Below are positions 16,271-27,264 of a stretch of 40,019 bases of DNA, one piece after another. The notes beneath the pieces were generated by a model. The model made no database searches. It was given only the letters and a program-made list of their open reading frames with translations, and had not been told where the DNA came from. Within the stretch, counting starts at the first letter, position 1; every line of letters begins with the position of its first letter. The stretch comes from a virus. Its lineage: Duplodnaviria; Heunggongvirae; Uroviricota; Caudoviricetes. The stretch is from the IMG/VR virus record IMGVR_UViG_2531839180_000007, one strand, 5' to 3'. A program made the translations under genes and the position numbers.

Positions 16271-17476
16271 TTACGCCGCTGCAATCTTCAGCAGTTTGAT
16301 GGCCTGCGAATCGACCAGCATCCCGCCGGTGCGCTTGGTGGTATAAAAACCGACAAACGGTTTATTGGTGTACGGGTCACGCAGAATGCGGGTGCCGATA
16401 CGGTCAACGATGGTGTAACCCCGTTTGAAGTTACCAAATGCAATGGCTTTCGCATCAGCGGCGATATCCGGCATCTGTTCGTTTTCAGCGATACCGTAAC
16501 CCGCCAGAGAGGACGGCTGCCCCAGTTCCAGCCCCGGACGCCACAGATAGTTACCCTCGGTGTCTTTCAGCAGACGGATGGCAAACAGGCTGTTGTTGTT
16601 CATCATGAACTTCGCGCCAGTGCGGTGTGCCTTACGCAGCGTGTAAATCAGTTTGATAATGGCGTCTGCGGTCACCGCCGTCGCTTCGCCGGATACAATA
16701 TGCTGAAGTTTGCCGAACGCCCTGACCTTATCGGTTTCATCAGTGGATTCATACGCCAGGAACCCTTTCGGCTTCTTGGTACCATCGCCGGTGGTAAAGG
16801 CAATTTCTTCCTGTTCGGCAAATTCGGTTGCCAGCTCGCTGTTGATCCATGCTTCCACGTTGAAAAAGGCATCATCCAGCATTTTCTGGGTAGCCTGCGG
16901 GTTACCGTAGATTTCCCCCATGAAAGGTTCAATCAGTCCCAGTTTTGAGGTGGCAGTCTGGGAGCGCGCGTCAGTCTCGCCAACCCATCCGGAAGCCGTG
17001 CCGCCCAGATTCACCAGTTTTTTGTAGTCGGAACCGCCAACGGTGATCACCGTGGCTTCCTGGCGCATCACCACTTCATCTTTCAGCAGGGTAAGAATGT
17101 TGCGATCCAGTGCTTCCGGCACGGCATAGCCGCCGTCTTCATCGGTGCCCACCTGTAATGCCTTGCGCTCCAGATCGCGCAGACCATCTTCACGGCCTTT
17201 ACGCAGGAAGCCCACAAACGCTTCTTTATGCTCGGTGGCCAGTTTATTTTGCGCACCACCTGCCGGACGTTTCAGCTCAAGAAGCTCTTTTTCAAGATCG
17301 CTTTTGAGGTTTTCCAGCTCGCTGAGTTTCCCGTTCAGGGTTTCCACCTGCCCGGCAAGTTTGCCTTTTTCCTGCTCAATCGCATCCACGCGCTTGTCGT
17401 TCTTTGCTTTGAAGTCGTCAAACTTCTGCTGCAGCTCCTGCGCGACCTGTTCGACATCTTTAATATCAACCGCCAT
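16271..17476 (-). CDS. Major capsid protein (HK97 fold) with N-terminal coiled-coil scaffold domain
   Basis: 401 aa; coiled-coil delta-domain-like N-terminus followed by a capsid domain; downstream of the prohead protease. Confidence 0.8.
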   Translation of the reverse strand: MAVDIKDVEQVAQELQQKFDDFKAKNDKRVDAIEQEKGKLAGQVETLNGKLSELENLKSDLEKELLELKRPAGGAQNKLATEHKEAFVGFLRKGREDGLRDLERKALQVGTDEDGGYAVPEALDRNILTLLKDEVVMRQEATVITVGGSDYKKLVNLGGTASGWVGETDARSQTATSKLGLIEPFMGEIYGNPQATQKMLDDAFFNVEAWINSELATEFAEQEEIAFTTGDGTKKPKGFLAYESTDETDKVRAFGKLQHIVSGEATAVTADAIIKLIYTLRKAHRTGAKFMMNNNSLFAIRLLKDTEGNYLWRPGLELGQPSSLAGYGIAENEQMPDIAADAKAIAFGNFKRGYTIVDRIGTRILRDPYTNKPFVGFYTTKRTGGMLVDSQAIKLLKIAAA

Positions 17477-17490
17477 CGTATTTCTCCTGA

Positions 17491-18177
17491 TTAGAAGTTC
17501 AGATTTTTCAGTGCATTCAGTGCAGAGCCCACATCCTCAGCGTCGCGCAGGGACAGTGCGCCATAGCCCCCGGCCATGAATGCTTTGGCCTGGGTACGGG
17601 AGAGTCCGACATCACGCAGGACTCTTTCGATTTTTTTCTGTTCGGGGATTTCCCCGCGGGCCAGTGCGTTCTTGACGTCGCTGATCCGCGCCTCGTCGTT
17701 AGACGGGAACGTCACCAGGCTGACTTCCCAGAGGTCGATTTCTTTCAGCAGAAAGGCTTCTTTGCTCCGGTCGTATTCCCAGTCTTTCAGGACATACCCA
17801 ATAGAAAGGCCGGTTAACGAACCGGCCTTCATGTGTGCATGTGCGCGTTTTGCGAGGGGATCATCATCAATAAGCAACCGTCCCCTGACGTAAAGCCCGA
17901 CATCGTCTTCCTTCATTTCGGTGTAAACACCGATGGGTTCATCCATGCGGTGCTGCCAGAGCAGCGCAGGTAACGCTTTTCTGTCACTCCACGCCCGCAG
18001 GGAAGCAGCAAATGCCCCGGACATCACCACATCATCGTGGCTGTCCTTTACACCAAAGACGGAGCCATACCCTTCAAACTCACCGGAGTCACTGACAGAT
18101 TTCAGACTCAGCGGTACATCAAGACGTTGTTTCGTCTGCATTGGCGTTATCCTTCTGCTTACCGGCTTTACTGCCAT
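17491..18177 (-). CDS. Prohead protease (HK97 family)
   Basis: 228 aa; FEGYGSVFGVKDSHDDVV motif region typical of HK97-type prohead proteases; lies between portal and capsid. The real start may be the internal Met near 18141. Confidence 0.75.
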   Translation of the reverse strand: MAVKPVSRRITPMQTKQRLDVPLSLKSVSDSGEFEGYGSVFGVKDSHDDVVMSGAFAASLRAWSDRKALPALLWQHRMDEPIGVYTEMKEDDVGLYVRGRLLIDDDPLAKRAHAHMKAGSLTGLSIGYVLKDWEYDRSKEAFLLKEIDLWEVSLVTFPSNDEARISDVKNALARGEIPEQKKIERVLRDVGLSRTQAKAFMAGGYGALSLRDAEDVGSALNALKNLNF

Positions 18178-21903: not shown

Positions 21904-22254
21904 TCACTTCAACCGTTCACGGGCCGTCTTCGCCTTATGACACGGCCAGCACAAACTCTGCAGATTACTGTCGACATCAGTGCCGCCATGCGATTTAGGG
22001 ATGATGTGGTCAACGGTCTTCGCCTCACGCACCACACCAGCACGCAGACATAACTGACACAGGCCTTTGTCACGCTTCAGGACACGCGCGCGAATACTGT
22101 CCCACTTCGAACCGTAGCCGCGCTGATGACGGGATTGTCCAGGTTTGTATTGCTTCCAGCCTTCGCTTTTGTGGCTTTCGCAGTAGCCTGAAGGGTCTGT
22201 GGTTGTAGAGCGGCAGCCGCGAACACGGCAGGCTTTTGGGGTTCGTGAGGGCAT
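21904..22254 (-). CDS. HNH endonuclease (packaging-associated)
   Basis: 116 aa; Cys/His motifs (CQLC..DHIIP..H..CWPCH); upstream of the terminase as in HK97-type cos phages. Confidence 0.8.
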   Translation of the reverse strand: MPSRTPKACRVRGCRSTTTDPSGYCESHKSEGWKQYKPGQSRHQRGYGSKWDSIRARVLKRDKGLCQLCLRAGVVREAKTVDHIIPKSHGGTDVDSNLQSLCWPCHKAKTARERLK

Positions 22255-22429
22255 TGCATAATACTCTTGGTTGGTTCACGTGCGATATGTGGCATCCTTT
22301 TCAGAATCGAAGCGTATTCCACTACGGTTTTGCCATAAAAACCTCAGGATTTTTTTGTTAGACAAATCGATAGTAAACGTTCAAATTTACAAGATATTAG
22401 CAACAAAATAGCCTCTACAAGGAATCAAT

Positions 22430-22978
22430 ATGTTTGATTTTACTCATTTTGAAGAGTTGACTTTAGCATCCCATCAACCCGATAGAATAATGACTATAGT
22501 TCGGTCCCAAGATGACATTGGTATCTATCTCCGCACTCACCTTTTGATTGAACAAATCTTGGAAGCTTGGATTATCTGTGCCTCTGGTAACAGGGATTTC
22601 TTCAGCGGTTTTGGCGAAAATATCAACATGGATTTTGCCATTAAAGCTCAGCTTGCGATGAACTATGGGATGAGCTCAGAGCTAAACAAATTTATTCGAA
22701 GGTTCAACAACTTCAGAAACAAACGTTCACATCAAATTAACAACTCTGACATCACTAACAGTGAGATTGACTCCTTAACAAGTCTAATGGAGCACGGTTA
22801 CCCTGATAGCTTGACCCCCATTAGAGATTTTAAGCTTGGGGTTTACGGAGCAGAAACTAGGGTTGTAAGTTTCACGGGATCCTCTACAAGCTTACGCGAT
22901 AAGCTCATTATGTTATTCGCTATGTTTTCCATGAGGGTACATTACGAAGCAAAATGCTTAAGCACGCCACAGAGCTAG
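22430..22978 (+). CDS. Hypothetical protein, first gene of the AT-rich accessory cassette (182 aa)
   Basis: ATG with an upstream aagga RBS; G+C visibly lower than flanking genes; opposite strand to the late operon; no motif recognised. Confidence 0.6.
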   Translation: MFDFTHFEELTLASHQPDRIMTIVRSQDDIGIYLRTHLLIEQILEAWIICASGNRDFFSGFGENINMDFAIKAQLAMNYGMSSELNKFIRRFNNFRNKRSHQINNSDITNSEIDSLTSLMEHGYPDSLTPIRDFKLGVYGAETRVVSFTGSSTSLRDKLIMLFAMFSMRVHYEAKCLSTPQS

Positions 22979-23056
22979 GCTCTACTTTGATGCTCTAATA
23001 ACATTCGATTATTTGCATTTCCTGTTGCATTAGCGACCTGCCATTGAGGAGTAAAA

Positions 23057-23617
23057 ATGATCCATACGGTACATTTTTTGACAGATGTTACAGTTGCCTC
23101 TGTAACTAATCTGATGGATGTCTGCTTAAAAGCAGTTTCAAATACTAATCAACCAGCAACAGAAATTAAGCTCTATATTTCCAGCAAAGGTGGAGATACA
23201 GTTTCAGGCTTTACTGCTTACAATTTTTTAAAGTCACTTGGTGTAAAGGTTACTACGCATAACCTCAGTAATGTTGAATCAATCGCAAACGTGATCTATA
23301 TGGCTGGAGAAGTGCGAACTGCCAACCCACTTTCTCGCTTCCTTCTTCACCCACTGCATTGGGGGTTCGCCGCACCCAGCGCAGATCACCTACGATTGAG
23401 AGAATGGGCTTCATGCCTCGATGACGATCTAAATCGATTTATTCAAATCATGGATATTGAAACAAAAAAGAAAAATCCAAGTGAGATTGCTGATTGGAAG
23501 GATTTGATCACTTCGGCAACCATCCTTCATCCCGGAAGGGCCTCCGAGTTGGGAATTGTTCATCAAGTCGAGGCTGCAACCATACCCACGGAATCGATCC
23601 GCTGGTGGGTACTTTAA
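23057..23617 (+). CDS. ClpP-family (S14) serine protease paralog, 186 aa
   Basis: Aligns by eye to E. coli ClpP: FLTD versus FLTG, IKLYISSKGG versus IYLYINSPGG, a Ser in ..VESIANV.. at the catalytic Ser position, LLHPLHWG versus MIHQPLGG (His), and WKDLI versus RDRFL (Asp). gaggag RBS upstream. Confidence 0.7.
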   Translation: MIHTVHFLTDVTVASVTNLMDVCLKAVSNTNQPATEIKLYISSKGGDTVSGFTAYNFLKSLGVKVTTHNLSNVESIANVIYMAGEVRTANPLSRFLLHPLHWGFAAPSADHLRLREWASCLDDDLNRFIQIMDIETKKKNPSEIADWKDLITSATILHPGRASELGIVHQVEAATIPTESIRWWVL

Positions 23618-23638
23618 AATCATAATATTCACCATAAT

Positions 23639-23667
23639 GCGGGCTTAGAAGCCCGCTCTTTTTTTCT
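23639..23667 (+). terminator. Intrinsic terminator of the accessory cassette
   Basis: gcgggc-ttagaa-gcccgc hairpin followed by tctttttttct. Confidence 0.7.
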
Positions 23668-23902
23668 CAGCCTGCCTGATATCAGCCTTATCCCGATTGC
23701 ACTGGCCAAGTGCCGATAGCAGACTGACATTTAAATTAAGACTATTACCCCATGTCATATTATCCGGAATGTCAGGATAAGGCGTTTCAGCCGTCAGGGT
23801 GGCTGGTAACGGAACCACCGGAATGCTCACGTAAACTGTTCGCGTACTTCCGCAACCGCTCAGCAGCGGCAGCAGGCACAAGGCCTGCAGCACAATCATC
23901 AT
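23645..23902 (-). CDS. o-spanin (Rz1-like outer-membrane lipoprotein)
   Basis: Lipobox LLPLLSGC and Pro-rich mature region; overlaps the 3' end of the i-spanin gene in another frame. The start is taken at an internal Met; the ORF extends to 23968. Confidence 0.6.
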   Translation of the reverse strand: MMIVLQALCLLPLLSGCGSTRTVYVSIPVVPLPATLTAETPYPDIPDNMTWGNSLNLNVSLLSALGQCNRDKADIRQAEKKRAGF

Positions 23903-24179
23903 CCGCAACAGCCACTTTGATATCTTTCTGGGTTCTCTGTGACTCCAGTGCGATCTGCTGTTTTGCATGCTGGTTAACCTCTATAACTGTATTGACGAGT
24001 TGCAGTGATTGCAGGACGTTACGGGTAATGGCTGTTGCAGATTCAGCATTTTGTACAGCCTCATCAGCACGTTTCTTTTCGTGCTGATATTTGCTGTAGT
24101 AGTGGTTGGCAGACCAGATGAAAGAACCAATGACAGTAAAGAAGAATGCAGCGATAACCAGCTTATAGCTCAACTTCAT
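23787..24179 (-). CDS. i-spanin (Rz-like)
   Basis: 130 aa; N-terminal transmembrane segment followed by predicted coiled coil; directly downstream of the endolysin. Confidence 0.65.
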   Translation of the reverse strand: MKLSYKLVIAAFFFTVIGSFIWSANHYYSKYQHEKKRADEAVQNAESATAITRNVLQSLQLVNTVIEVNQHAKQQIALESQRTQKDIKVAVADDDCAAGLVPAAAAERLRKYANSLREHSGGSVTSHPDG

Positions 24180-24924: not shown

Positions 24925-25064
24925 CAGCTCTGTAACAGTTCAAGTAAATCAGGCCAGGAATGAGGATCGTTGTGCATTTCATAATTCCCACCTCCGATTA
25001 CCGGAAGTGCCACAAGTAAAAGGGAAAGAAGCTGGTTATAACGCTGATTTGCAGAAGTGCGCAT
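24795..25064 (-). CDS. Holin-like membrane protein, N-terminal frame
   Basis: 89-aa ORF with two hydrophobic segments; its frame and the downstream holin-like frame overlap at the homopolymer 24842..24848. Confidence 0.45.
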   Translation of the reverse strand: MRTSANQRYNQLLSLLLVALPVIGGGNYEMHNDPHSWPDLLELLQSWWRGDTPLGAVIMSIVMAGLRIAYFGGGVAGSEKRSRFCSVVL

Positions 25065-25088
25065 AAAAAAGGCCGCCCGTAGGCGGCC
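25063..25088 (-). terminator. tR'-like intrinsic terminator between the Q-proximal small gene and the lysis genes
   Basis: Minus-strand hairpin ggccgcc-tacg-ggcggcc followed by TTTTTT. Confidence 0.65.
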
Positions 25089-25106
25089 TCAAAAATCTTA
25101 TTTTCA

Positions 25107-25310
25107 TCATCGCGAAGGATGGAGGGTTTTATGACGAGGTTTAATGTAAACCTCATAGGAATGAGACAGCTTGTCTACTTCTCTAATTGGTAATTCCCAA
25201 CCAGTATTCAACAGAATACTTTTCTGAGTAGCAGACACTAACACTGAGCCAATCTCAATATTATTTGCAATTGCCACGACCTTCTTGGTCGTGTGTTTAC
25301 TATTTTGCAT
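25107..25310 (-). CDS. Hypothetical small protein (67 aa) between Q and the tR'-like terminator
   Basis: Strong RBS aaaggagatcacc before the ATG; AT-rich; followed by an intrinsic terminator. Confidence 0.55.
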   Translation of the reverse strand: MQNSKHTTKKVVAIANNIEIGSVLVSATQKSILLNTGWELPIREVDKLSHSYEVYIKPRHKTLHPSR

Positions 25311-25502
25311 GGTGATCTCCTTTCAACCAGCATCACAAATGTGATGGAGATCACAATATCACTTGTTCAAAAAACATGCAACATAAAACCCACCTGAGCG
25401 GGTTTATAAAAGTTAGACATTCAATGCCCATCTTTACGTTAAGGCTAACCATATTTTTTGAAAATTGCAAGCATTGTGCGGAGAAAATCATTAAAAATGT
25501 AG

Positions 25503-26255
25503 CTATCGTGTCACTTTTTGCAACTGTAACTCTGCGAATGCTTCTTCCTGCCAGCACTTTGTTACCAGTTTATCAATGACGTCTGCATATCCTTTGTACC
25601 ACTGATAATCCGTCAGGTCTGGTACCAGCTTCTGGACATGAAGCCGCGCCAGTGTGGTTGGTAAACGGCTAAACCGGTTTCCATTGCAACGCCCACAAAT
25701 CTTATAAACAGGCGTGCCATGAAGCCGGGTTCTTTTTTCATCCAGGACAATACCTTTACCCTTACACCCTCTGCACGCGGTGCTGACTTCTCCCTTACCA
25801 TGGCAATGCTGACATAGTTCCTTCACCCACTCTTCCTTGATAACAGATTCCCCGCTTCTGGAGTGTTTCACCACTTCGCGCAATACATTATGAAATCCAG
25901 TACCAGCACAATGCTCACAGCGAGCCTTACTTGCCGCAGACCTGGAATAATCAGCAAAGGCAAAATTCACAAGGTAAGGGATGATCTGTAACCGGGTTTC
26001 TTCACTCAATTTGTTCAATGTCGGGTTATCCAGTGCCATCGCGTAATTGAGCAGACCTTCAATCGCAAACTGAGGATCCTGAACACCAACTTTTGCCAGG
26101 AATAAGGCAAACCCAAGCGGTGCTTTCGACTGCACCATCCCCTGCGCAGCCATCACATCCGTAATCGTTAAACCACCTGAGCCTGTCGCCGGTGCGTCAT
26201 CGCTCAATTTTGGAGATTTTGGGGAGTAATATTTTGGTAAGGCTTCAAGGTTCAT
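25503..26255 (-). CDS. Late-gene antiterminator Q (Zn-binding, lambdoid Q family)
   Basis: About 250 aa with Cys-rich motifs (CEHCAGTG, CQHCHGKG, CRGCKGKG, CGRCNG); ggaga RBS before the ATG at 26255; positioned upstream of the lysis module. Confidence 0.7.
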   Translation of the reverse strand: MNLEALPKYYSPKSPKLSDDAPATGSGGLTITDVMAAQGMVQSKAPLGFALFLAKVGVQDPQFAIEGLLNYAMALDNPTLNKLSEETRLQIIPYLVNFAFADYSRSAASKARCEHCAGTGFHNVLREVVKHSRSGESVIKEEWVKELCQHCHGKGEVSTACRGCKGKGIVLDEKRTRLHGTPVYKICGRCNGNRFSRLPTTLARLHVQKLVPDLTDYQWYKGYADVIDKLVTKCWQEEAFAELQLQKVTR

Positions 26256-26268
26256 GCTCGTTCTCCAC

Positions 26269-27264
26269 TTACGCCAGCACGCCAATTGCCAGCGCACGAT
26301 CGATAAAACGAAATATCAGCTCAAGCTGGGAGCCATACTTCTCTTCAAATGCCACGGTATCCGCATGCAGCTCGTCGTGATGCTTTCTGCACAAAGGCAA
26401 CACAAAGAGGTCATGCGCTTTTGTACCCATTCCGCCCTGACCGTGACCTGTCAGGTGGTGGGGATCATCAGCAGGTTTTCCACAACATGCGCACGGCTGC
26501 GTCTTAACCCATCGCGTGTACTTTTCATTAACCCAGCGGCGACGTTTGGGGCGTAACATAAAAGACTCCGGCGACTCCGGATCCACTTTCAGCGCCAGCA
26601 CCTTTTTCGCTTTATCCTGGATGATGCTGGTGGCAGGAACCGAAGGCACAAGGTCACTTTCCCGGGTAACAGACGGCACAACAGGCTTCGGTAATCTCAG
26701 TGCCTTACGGGCTGCACTTTCCGGTAAGGCATCCGCCAGGTCATTACGAATCAGCCACCAGCACAGTTCCGGCATTGTCACAACGTGACTGTCATCAAAA
26801 CCGAGATCCCGACGCACAACAGACAACACCCAGCGGGCACAGTTATCCGTTGCCATTGATTCCAGCCGTTCCGTGAACTGATCGCGCAGCTGGTTATCGC
26901 AGTGCCAGCACAGACGGATTGCACCCGGCGCGTGTCGCATTGTGGTCATGTTCTCGCTGTGCCAGTCGGAATGAGGCCACTGACAGCCCTTTTCACGAAG
27001 TAACCAGCTTTCAAGACATTCCACGCCACCAGCACGACGGATCACTGCCTCATTGCGGAACACGGCCCGAACGGCAGGATCATCCGCCAGCGGTTGTGAT
27101 GCCGCCGGAACGGCACCACTGGCGAAAGATGAATAACGTTCCGGCTCAGGCTCCAGCAGGACACGCCCCTGCATAAACAGGGGCATCAGCTCTGAACCTG
27201 GCCTGAACAATACGATCCCCATACGCGGGGCAATTTCAGGGGTCAGTAGTGCTCTCACGGTCAC
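26269..27264 (-). CDS. DUF968-family phage protein (nin-region, HNH-like C-terminal Cys/His motif)
   Basis: 331 aa; C-terminal ..CACCGKPADDPHHL..CRKHHDELH.. motif. Confidence 0.6.
   Translation of the reverse strand: MTVRALLTPEIAPRMGIVLFRPGSELMPLFMQGRVLLEPEPERYSSFASGAVPAASQPLADDPAVRAVFRNEAVIRRAGGVECLESWLLREKGCQWPHSDWHSENMTTMRHAPGAIRLCWHCDNQLRDQFTERLESMATDNCARWVLSVVRRDLGFDDSHVVTMPELCWWLIRNDLADALPESAARKALRLPKPVVPSVTRESDLVPSVPATSIIQDKAKKVLALKVDPESPESFMLRPKRRRWVNEKYTRWVKTQPCACCGKPADDPHHLTGHGQGGMGTKAHDLFVLPLCRKHHDELHADTVAFEEKYGSQLELIFRFIDRALAIGVLA

Follow-up and report, generated by a model that had tools for sequence, protein, structure and literature searches.

The viral record IMGVR_UViG_2531839180_000007 of IMG/VR (Caudoviricetes; 40,019 nucleotides, the whole of which is called the window below) is a complete Escherichia coli prophage that ends, according to its gene annotation, in the host gene ybhC. 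Between its lysis and packaging genes, in the interval from 22,255 to 23,667, it carries two plus-strand genes, hereafter gene A and gene B. A first-pass annotation, made by a model from the sequence alone, had described them as a single self-contained cassette in which a protein of unknown function was the dedicated partner of a ClpP-like protease. We found that they are two independently mobile single-gene cargo cassettes, or morons, stacked by recombination in one E. coli prophage lineage, and we hold this conclusion to be close to certain. As for the products, they are unrelated: gene A would probably encode a HEPN ribonuclease resembling the abortive-infection protein HepS of Salmonella, and gene B a ClpP paralogue of the type represented by PpClpP1 of Pseudomonas plecoglossicida. 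The two open reading frames (ORFs) were confirmed at the positions and lengths first reported (in amino acids, aa), on the plus strand and antisense to the late operon:

22430..22978, plus strand: gene A, 182-aa stand-alone HEPN-domain protein (phrog_5483), with predicted catalytic residues R96, N97 and H101
23057..23617, plus strand: gene B, PpClpP1-type serine peptidase subunit of 186 aa, with a ClpP fold and a truncated N terminus

Genes A and B are separately mobile modules

The cassette with both genes was present in 15 of 5426 complete E. coli genomes, always on the chromosome, at 98.7-100% identity and in strains from varied hosts. It was also found in 7 IMG/VR contigs at 100% identity. 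We took a census of gene neighbourhoods by tblastn over all fetched loci, more than 150 in number. When viral loci were anchored on gene A, both genes occurred in 7 of 36, all 7 being 100% identical to the window, and no gene B lay within 10 kb in the other 29. When they were anchored on gene B, gene A was present in 7 of 80, which were the same clonal set, and absent from 73. At genomic loci of gene B, gene A was found in 0 of 19. Among the non-clonal homologues checked, gene A at 37-90% identity had no B nearby and gene B at 28-96% had no A; the closest ones were solitary too, that is, A at 84% and 90% identity and B at 96% (locus L086). The search for co-occurrence proposed in the first-pass annotation therefore returned A and B side by side only in copies identical to the window, and the supposed protease and partner were conserved as a unit in one clonal lineage only. 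Because the two genes are not conserved as a unit, the reading of them as a pair fails.

The close family of gene A comprised 16 clusters at 46-99% identity. Its members were solitary in every contig that we fetched (at 90%, 84%, 66%, 57-59%, 53% and 46% identity), and at all loci with enough flanking sequence they sat antisense between the lysis genes and the small-terminase gene, terS, of lambdoid prophages. Gene A stood alone and antisense in accessory slots at 29 non-clonal viral loci, at 13 contig loci, in phage phi80 and in phage FSL SP-016.

The boundary between the two modules was visible in the DNA, through the following features:

22319..22996, plus strand: module A, comprising gene A, the region upstream of it and a terS stub; 84-88% nucleotide identity to A-only loci (L014, L051 and L011) with precisely these limits
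22323..22337, minus strand: relic of a foreign small-terminase start, ATG GCA AAA CCG TAG (M-A-K-P-stop); the same bases open an intact Terminase_2-type terS (MAKPDWG...) in A-only loci
22338..22429, plus strand: upstream region of gene A, the presumed place of its promoter, with a Shine-Dalgarno-like AAGGAA at 22419-22424; conserved in the 84-100% identity group
22998..23056, plus strand: 5' end of module B, a 59-nt leader also present in L086 (a B-only locus); Shine-Dalgarno sequence GAGGAG at 23046-23051

On the other side of the boundary, the block 22998-23982, which holds gene B, a terminator and the spanin genes Rz1/Rz, matched L086 at 87%, and positions 23055-23981 matched Klebsiella loci at about 73% nucleotide identity. 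The spanin genes travel with module B at the DNA level. The blocks of modules A and B abut at 22996/22998, within about 1 nt, and what had been taken for one self-contained cassette consists of two modules joined at this point. The M-A-K-P-stop stub marks a former neighbourhood of gene A and terS and is the footprint of the recombination that brought gene A.

The A-only loci of Citrobacter braakii (L011 / L012 4441-4907) contained two terS-like starts of the MAKPDW... type, with one intact gene and an extra copy nearer to gene A. These doubled starts hint at repeated recombination at the junction.

Gene A encodes a HEPN-domain protein

The first-pass annotation had left gene A without a function; motif, structure and profile matches identified its product as a HEPN-domain protein. 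Pfam yielded just a faint match to Abi_2 (E 0.042), and the PHROG search assigned gene A to phrog_5483, a PHROG of unknown function. PADLOC-DB 2.0, a library that predates HepS, returned no family at E up to 1 for A or B, in keeping with the earlier remark that the cassette was not recognisable as any described defence system. In an alignment of 16 gene A relatives, the string R96-N97-K/x-R99-S100-H101 was invariant, and R96-N97-x3-H101 reads as the HEPN signature Rx4-6H with a polar residue after the arginine. At E 1e-3 or better, an exhaustive profile search with gene A collected 191 representative clusters, with lengths of 160-210 aa in nearly all cases. In a remote alignment of 66 sequences, E41, N97 and H101 were invariant, and L34, H37, K72, N93 and R96 were at least 90% conserved. 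Members of the family matched a series of HEPN models in Pfam (RiboL-PSP, Abi_2, DUF4145, Cthe_2314, ApeA, HepT and Csm6).

The AF2 model of gene A (pLDDT 88) was predominantly helical. The four best matches found by Foldseek in the PDB were HepS (9oik/9oij; E 6.5e-4 to 2e-3, TM 0.55-0.59, about 199 columns); HEPN-fold MtlR/YggD proteins came next (E 0.03-0.1, TM about 0.5), then HEPN toxins. The most variable segment of the family, located by combining alignment and model, surrounds a predicted beta-hairpin at residues 135-147, and may be a candidate sensor surface. Gene A shares with the AbiD/AbiF-type (Abi_2) proteins, and with other HEPN abortive-infection proteins and toxins, the HEPN fold, the Rx4-6H motif and weak Pfam family matches. 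It differs from AbiD/F and the HEPN toxins in that its Pfam matches lie below the gathering thresholds, in being much shorter, and in having no antitoxin such as MNT.

The gene A family occurs in prophages of E. coli, Citrobacter and Enterobacter and in phi80. In the latter, gp52 (NC_021190 44365-44979; L174 1172-1786), annotated as a hypothetical protein and lying antisense between rha and cos, was a full-length member (hhalign 100%). Salmonella phage FSL SP-016 carries another, solitary member.

Gene A belongs to a sister family of HepS

HepS (STM14_3211; PDB 9OIJ/9OIK) is a solo HEPN tRNase that acts by abortive infection and is encoded by the Salmonella prophage Gifsy-1 (PMC13043305). It is a constitutive tetramer with no partner gene, is triggered by direct binding of a 32-residue peptide from the siphovirus tail-tip protein J, and, once activated, cuts tRNA anticodon loops, which results in abortive infection (PMC13043305). 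Its activity depends on each of the residues R100, H105, I107 and F66, and N101 contacts the anticodon in a model (PMC13043305).

For comparison, we took full-length HepS (210 aa) from a Gifsy-1-like IMG/VR contig. The 66-sequence profile of gene A aligned with it by hhalign at 97.7% (E 2.4e-12) over 107 columns, A 14-126 against HepS 21-129; the narrower 16-sequence profile reached a probability of 64% only, and pairwise BLASTP gave 26% identity over 102 aa. In the hhalign alignment, E41, K72, N93, R96, N97, H101, I103 and F57 of gene A corresponded to E48, K76, N97, R100, N101, H105, I107 and F66 of HepS. HepS fell into phrog_5712 (E 8e-150), and gene A and phi80 gp52 into phrog_5483 (E 5e-76 and 6e-81), with cross-matches at E 1e-8 and 5e-3. 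By these comparisons, gene A is to be placed in a sister family of HepS and is not HepS itself.

Both proteins are small (182 against 210 aa), stand-alone and partnerless, are encoded in a prophage accessory slot, and have the motif R-N-K-x-x-H near the same position (R96-H101 in A, R100-H105 in HepS). The slots differ, HepS being located between replication and antirepressor genes in Gifsy-1 and gene A between lysis genes and terS. The HepS tails that bind the trigger (S13, D15, S202 and T203) did not align with gene A, the alignment spanning only A 14-126. On this account, the trigger of A probably differs from the J peptide. By analogy with HepS, we think it fairly likely that gene A encodes a phage-triggered HEPN ribonuclease. 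As a defence candidate, this HepS-like HEPN protein is more likely than the protease of the same cassette.

Gene B encodes a truncated ClpP of the PpClpP1 type

The assignment of gene B to the ClpP family in the first-pass annotation was borne out by Pfam CLP_protease PF00574 (47.7 bits against a cutoff of 20.2, E 2.1e-12). NCBIfam ClpP models gave at most 43 bits against cutoffs of at least 228, and the ClpP-related head-maturation model NF045542 gave 51.2 bits against a cutoff of 120. The claim that the Ser/His/Asp positions were apparently intact held in part: Ser75 and His98 are invariant in the family, but the column of Asp171 is occupied by Ala154 in gene B and by Ser, Ala or Pro in its relatives. 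The oxyanion motif SSxGG occupies residues 42-46 of gene B. The family carries a C-terminal extension that ends in a conserved WWV, and conserves D110, H111, D124 and R127 in addition. Its Met1 aligns at about residue 39 of the E. coli ClpP precursor, which leaves it without propeptide, axial loops and helix A. Like canonical ClpP (E. coli ClpP of MEROPS S14, and the ClpP1P2 hetero-tetradecamers), gene B has the Clp/crotonase-type fold, SxGG, Ser and His, and the handle helix. Unlike canonical ClpP, to which it is about 20-24% identical, it lacks the propeptide, the gating loops, helix A with its ClpX/ClpA contacts, and an equivalent of Asp171.

The closest structure was PpClpP1. The profile of the B family matched 9uxt (PpClpP1) at E 1.9e-48 over residues 3-180, against 2e-9 or worse for canonical ClpPs. 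Foldseek with the AlphaFold model of gene B (pLDDT 88) gave 9uxt at E 1.2e-15 (TM 0.87/0.88, rmsd 2.2 A, 36% identity), compared with TM 0.76 or less and 18-23% identity for canonical ClpPs. Viral ClpP-like proteins were no nearer to gene B than cellular ClpPs (TM 0.79 or less, about 20% identity).

PpClpP1 (Pseudomonas plecoglossicida, PDB 9UXT) forms a homotetradecamer with a 42.7 A axial pore and a peptidase activity 13-fold below that of the canonical ClpP2 (PMC12900304). Its Ser and His are essential, while its third residue is dispensable, about 60% of the activity being kept (PMC12900304). Alone, it does not bind ClpX, but PpClpP1 and ClpP2 make a stable heterotetradecamer that does bind ClpX and outperforms ClpP2 alone in substrate degradation; deletion of PpClpP1 causes growth and motility defects (PMC12900304). 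In the study, ClpP1 is regarded as a paralogue on the chromosome, and prophages go unmentioned (PMC12900304); none of the literature we consulted describes truncated ClpP paralogues encoded by prophages. Gene B is a full-length homologue of PpClpP1 (186 against 183 aa), with the same N-terminal truncation, a Ser-His pair without Asp and a related C-terminal tail (WWVL in B, QWSV in PpClpP1). It differs in having Ala154 and not Pro at the third position, and in occupying a cargo slot of an E. coli prophage. By analogy, we lean towards a gene B product that behaves biochemically like PpClpP1. That it might co-assemble with host ClpP, as the first-pass annotation had suggested, has an experimental precedent in this closest characterised homologue (PMC12900304); for gene B itself the idea would hold by analogy.

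In Pseudomonas guariconensis (L030 2968-16780), a protein 45% identical to PpClpP1 was encoded in a prophage accessory region. One flank of its gene holds tail and lysis genes of P2 type, and the other flank a Dam methylase, SRAP, a UmuC-like polymerase and an AAA_15/AbiEii-like ATPase. Such a location points to the published 'ClpP1' paralogue as being cargo of a mobile element, too.

Relatives of gene B are prophage cargo and are often coupled to mnt

The gene B family comprised 58 clusters, whose fetched members stood alone in several slots: at the Rz-terS junction (Klebsiella), inside the tail module, and next to N (Proteus). In a P22-like Pectobacterium prophage, the homologue of gene B lay downstream of an Mnt-like gene. 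Every enterobacterial member examined was prophage cargo.

A census of the slots covered about 109 loci, some contigs being counted twice. At about 44 of them, gene B started within 3 nt of the stop codon of a gene for an Mnt-type ribbon-helix-helix protein, an arrangement of translationally coupled, immI-like modules (for example L149 9729-10537, L020 4747-5537 and L175 2753-3537). These Mnt-B modules face Arc and a Bro-N/P22_AR_C antirepressor, and their Mnt variants are 36-100% identical to each other. About 30 further loci were at the Rz/terS junction, a subgroup that includes the window, 4 were next to N, and the rest were elsewhere or unclassified. Away from the window, the recurrent neighbour of gene B is thus an Mnt-type repressor, not gene A. 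Mnt is the repressor of the antirepressor in P22-type immI regions and maintains lysogeny. Because of this function, the coupling to mnt is the best available hint that genes of the B type are expressed in lysogens.

A prophage porin gene was located nearby in 6 of the roughly 44 Mnt-coupled loci. In phage phiv205-1, the homologue of gene B is annotated as 'head maturation protease', a label that its position contradicts.

The cassettes occupy a bor-type slot of a complete prophage

The slot and the surrounding prophage displayed the following features:

449-3211, plus strand: gtrA / gtrB / gtrC-like trio (GtrA_DPMS_TM, Glycos_transf_2 and Glucos_trans_II matches)
16271..17476: capsid gene of an HK97-type head
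17491..18177: S78 (HK97-type) prohead protease, beside the capsid gene
21904..22254, minus strand: HNH endonuclease gene upstream of the P27-family terS; left flank and left border of the slot, from the ORF list and the RefSeq annotation of the identical locus
23639..23667, plus strand: intrinsic terminator of the plus-strand transcript, overlapping the 3' end of Rz1/lysC on the opposite strand
23645..23899, minus strand: Rz1/LysC spanin gene, right flank, from annotation
23787..24179, minus strand: Rz spanin gene, right flank, from annotation
37038-38108: lambda-type integrase with arm-binding domain
38243-39526: host ybhC-like gene of the pectinesterase family

ORFs A and B are antisense to HNH/terS/terL on the left and to Rz1/Rz/lysozyme/holin on the right. 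The AT-richness noted at the outset was clear, the GC content being 0.39 in module A and 0.42 in module B against 0.555 in the left flank, 0.495 in the right flank and 0.506 in the window. The proposed terminator of their own was retrieved as well: a stem of 7 bp, 6 of them G-C, and then a T-run, folding at -13.7 kcal/mol (z = -3.0 against shuffles). The comparison of the slot with that of lambda bor also stood. The HNH-side flank is conserved in sibling prophages bearing other cargo, and E. coli siblings that share both the terS-HNH and the Rz-lysozyme flank fill the slot with iss (a bor homologue, antisense), DUF6979, DUF2441 or another hypothetical gene. The slot between Rz/Rz1 and the packaging genes is a bor-type cargo slot. 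It resembles the moron slot of lambda bor and E. coli iss in its position after Rz/Rz1 and before packaging, in its antisense orientation, in its AT-richness and in having its own terminator; the cargo differs, being here two predicted cytoplasmic enzymes and not an outer-membrane lipoprotein. A near-identity DNA search of INPHARED left the cassette unmatched, and Rfam over 22100-23800 gave sub-threshold chance matches only.

Elsewhere, the prophage has genes for tail fibre, baseplate and sheath, portal, terL, a P27-family terS and HNH, Rz1/Rz, lysozyme, holin and Q, as well as replication genes, a CI-like repressor and the lambda-type integrase. The gtr trio, which marks the left end of the prophage, is a serotype-conversion module for O-antigen glucosylation and a third lysogenic-conversion locus of the phage. 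As judged from gene identity only, the prophage appears to lie in the classical att-lambda neighbourhood.

A second cargo hotspot was noticed at 24925-26297, by comparison with L001 9022-10752 (NZ_CP063153, a sibling genome with an identical A+B cassette). In NZ_CP063153, a KAP-family NTPase of 443 aa is encoded there, flanked by the holin gene and a short Q gene; the window has instead a Q of 264 aa (25503-26297) and just some 440 bp of AT-rich sequence.

A model for the two cassettes and the points that weigh against it

We infer the enzymatic activities, the oligomeric states, the expression in the lysogen and the biological roles that enter the following model. Recombination would have set modules A and B side by side in the bor/iss-type slot of one lineage. 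The product of gene A would be made constitutively in the lysogen and, as in HepS, be held as an inactive oligomer until an infecting phage supplies a protein that activates it allosterically. It would then cut RNA, most likely tRNA anticodon loops, through a composite R96/N97/H101 site, and infection would be aborted. The product of gene B would, like PpClpP1, form a wide-pore, weakly active tetradecamer unable to bind ClpX or ClpA by itself. It would co-assemble with the canonical ClpP ring of the host into a mixed tetradecamer, and the output of ClpXP/ClpAP in the lysogen would be altered. Any specific biological role for gene B is tentative, and we would give it somewhat less than an even chance.

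Several observations weigh against this model. In this lineage, the gap between A and B is 78 nt and contains no terminator. Because of this, co-transcription is likely, and A and B probably form one transcript ending at 23639-23667; some interplay between them in this lineage may thus exist. There is also a second, independent co-occurrence: one IMG/VR contig, 3300011912_000003 (JGI Ga0121678_100150; 44.8 kb), carries both A (59%) and B (69%), about 15 kb apart (L059 / L102, L005 / L019): the homologue of A is at the lysis-terS junction, and that of B is inside the tail module. Close relatives of this B copy are found on contigs without A. With regard to gene A, its likeness to HepS is remote (15-19% identity in structural alignments, TM <0.6) and by sequence covers the HEPN core only, and the separate PHROGs place it outside the sequence-defined family of HepS. 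Gene B is just 36% identical to PpClpP1, has Ala and not Pro at the third position, and would need to pair with a different host ClpP than PpClpP1 does. Expression in the lysogen is deduced only from orientation, the private terminator and the mnt coupling of relatives of B. A scan for the sigma-70 consensus gave no promoter upstream of A or B, its sole match being one weak site within gene A. The literature contains no experiments on either E. coli protein and no mention of WP_000582030 or WP_000459434.

Promoter candidates picked by eye in the upstream region (e.g. TTCAAA-N18-CAAAAT, 22380-22409) were unconvincing, and their conservation was confounded by the terS coding sequence of relatives.

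Alternative explanations

The most direct alternative to two separate cassettes is that A and B are a genuine two-gene system, for instance a protease that activates or restrains a HEPN toxin, in a defence or toxin-antitoxin-like setting. The two genes do share a strand and one terminator, lie 78 nt apart with none in between, have been kept nearly identical in 15 E. coli genomes from varied hosts, and are both found, albeit unlinked, on contig 3300011912_000003. Against this, their adjacency is limited to one clonal lineage, facing 29 A-only and 73 B-only viral loci and 19 B-only genomic loci; the mosaic junction is sharp, module A contains a terS relic, HepS needs no partner (PMC13043305), and relatives of the B copy of the two-gene contig are on contigs without A. 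We therefore regard a true pair as very unlikely. A related proposal casts gene B as a prohead (head-maturation) protease, or as derived from one, and gene A as its scaffold-like partner. The best PHROG of gene B is indeed phrog_94, 'head maturation protease' (E 1.8e-25), the NCBIfam head-maturation and ClpP-MCP fusion models score top, though below threshold, and GenBank labels one B homologue in this way. Yet the score is 51 bits against a cutoff of 120, and the phage already has the S78 protease beside its capsid gene. Gene B is antisense and outside the head module, and other phages carry it in immI, among tail genes or beside N; a scaffold or delta domain is lacking, PpClpP1 is far nearer to it than viral ClpP-like proteins are, and gene A is a HEPN protein, not a scaffold. 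On the sub-threshold scores, the presence of the S78 protease and the lack of any special likeness to viral ClpP-like proteins, we discarded the prohead protease as having next to no chance, in line with the first-pass annotation, which had argued from the HK97-type prohead protease that gene B was not the head maturation protease.

Other possibilities concern one gene at a time. Gene A could be a non-catalytic regulator of HEPN fold, similar to MtlR/YggD, or an Abi_2-type protein with another activity, since MtlR/YggD are its next-best structural matches after HepS (E 0.03-0.1) and there is the faint match to Abi_2 (E 0.042). However, 66 remote relatives keep R-N-x3-H, the Glu of helix 1 and the Lys equivalent to HepS K76, a combination characteristic of catalytic HEPN nucleases, and HepS is a better match than MtlR in sequence and in structure; we thus consider a regulator improbable. 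Gene B might act alone, as a gate-less, ATPase-independent compartmental protease that perhaps removes Ant or other proteins of the resident or of a superinfecting phage, in immunity or exclusion. This would fit the tight coupling to mnt at about 44 loci, opposite Arc and the antirepressor and across divergent Mnt variants, and the finding that PpClpP1 by itself has some peptidase activity, though weak, and an open pore of 42.7 A (PMC12900304). In its favour are also the conserved D110, H111, D124, R127 and WWV, which canonical ClpP function does not explain. But gene B is not beside mnt in the window and at about 30 other loci, the best-documented gain of activity for PpClpP1 is in the mixed ring with canonical ClpP (PMC12900304), and the coupling may merely reflect a convenient slot expressed in lysogens. 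A solitary action of gene B is, in our view, rather unlikely, and the reading we prefer is that of a subunit for mixed rings with host ClpP, next to an unrelated HepS-like HEPN ribonuclease.

A much broader scenario can be drawn, which we view as a long shot. Lysogen-expressed prophage ClpP subunits, often made from an mnt operon, would be widespread and would form open-pore or mixed rings, with the Pseudomonas 'ClpP1' as a domesticated or resident example. By commandeering or supplementing the ClpP machinery of the host, they would control antirepressors, prophage induction or proteins of superinfecting phages, and would so add a layer of immunity or host manipulation based on a protease. The gene A family, phi80 gp52 included, would be a second clade of HepS-like sensors with new triggers, and the two independent co-occurrences of A and B could reflect real synergy.

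Implications

What looked like a mystery operon resolved into two separate genes. Both A and B have distant homologues that were characterised in 2026, and their juxtaposition is ordinary mosaicism, not a new system. The labels that databases give to these genes are all misleading ('ATP-dependent Clp protease proteolytic subunit', 'head maturation protease', 'hypothetical protein').

For gene A, the paradigm set by HepS in 2026, in which one constitutive HEPN protein senses the phage and aborts infection, would be extended to a sister family. The members of this family probably respond to different triggers and may therefore provide new sensor-trigger pairs, and phi80 gp52 would be a convenient model to study them.

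For gene B, the 'ClpP1' of a fish pathogen turns out to belong to a family whose members are prophage cargo at the examined loci of Enterobacterales and in at least one Pseudomonas relative. This family is often wired to the Mnt/Arc/antirepressor switch, and 'ClpP1' may accordingly be recast as a phage-borne modifier of host proteolysis. The question raised is whether temperate phages tune ClpXP/ClpAP to stabilise lysogeny or to exclude rivals.

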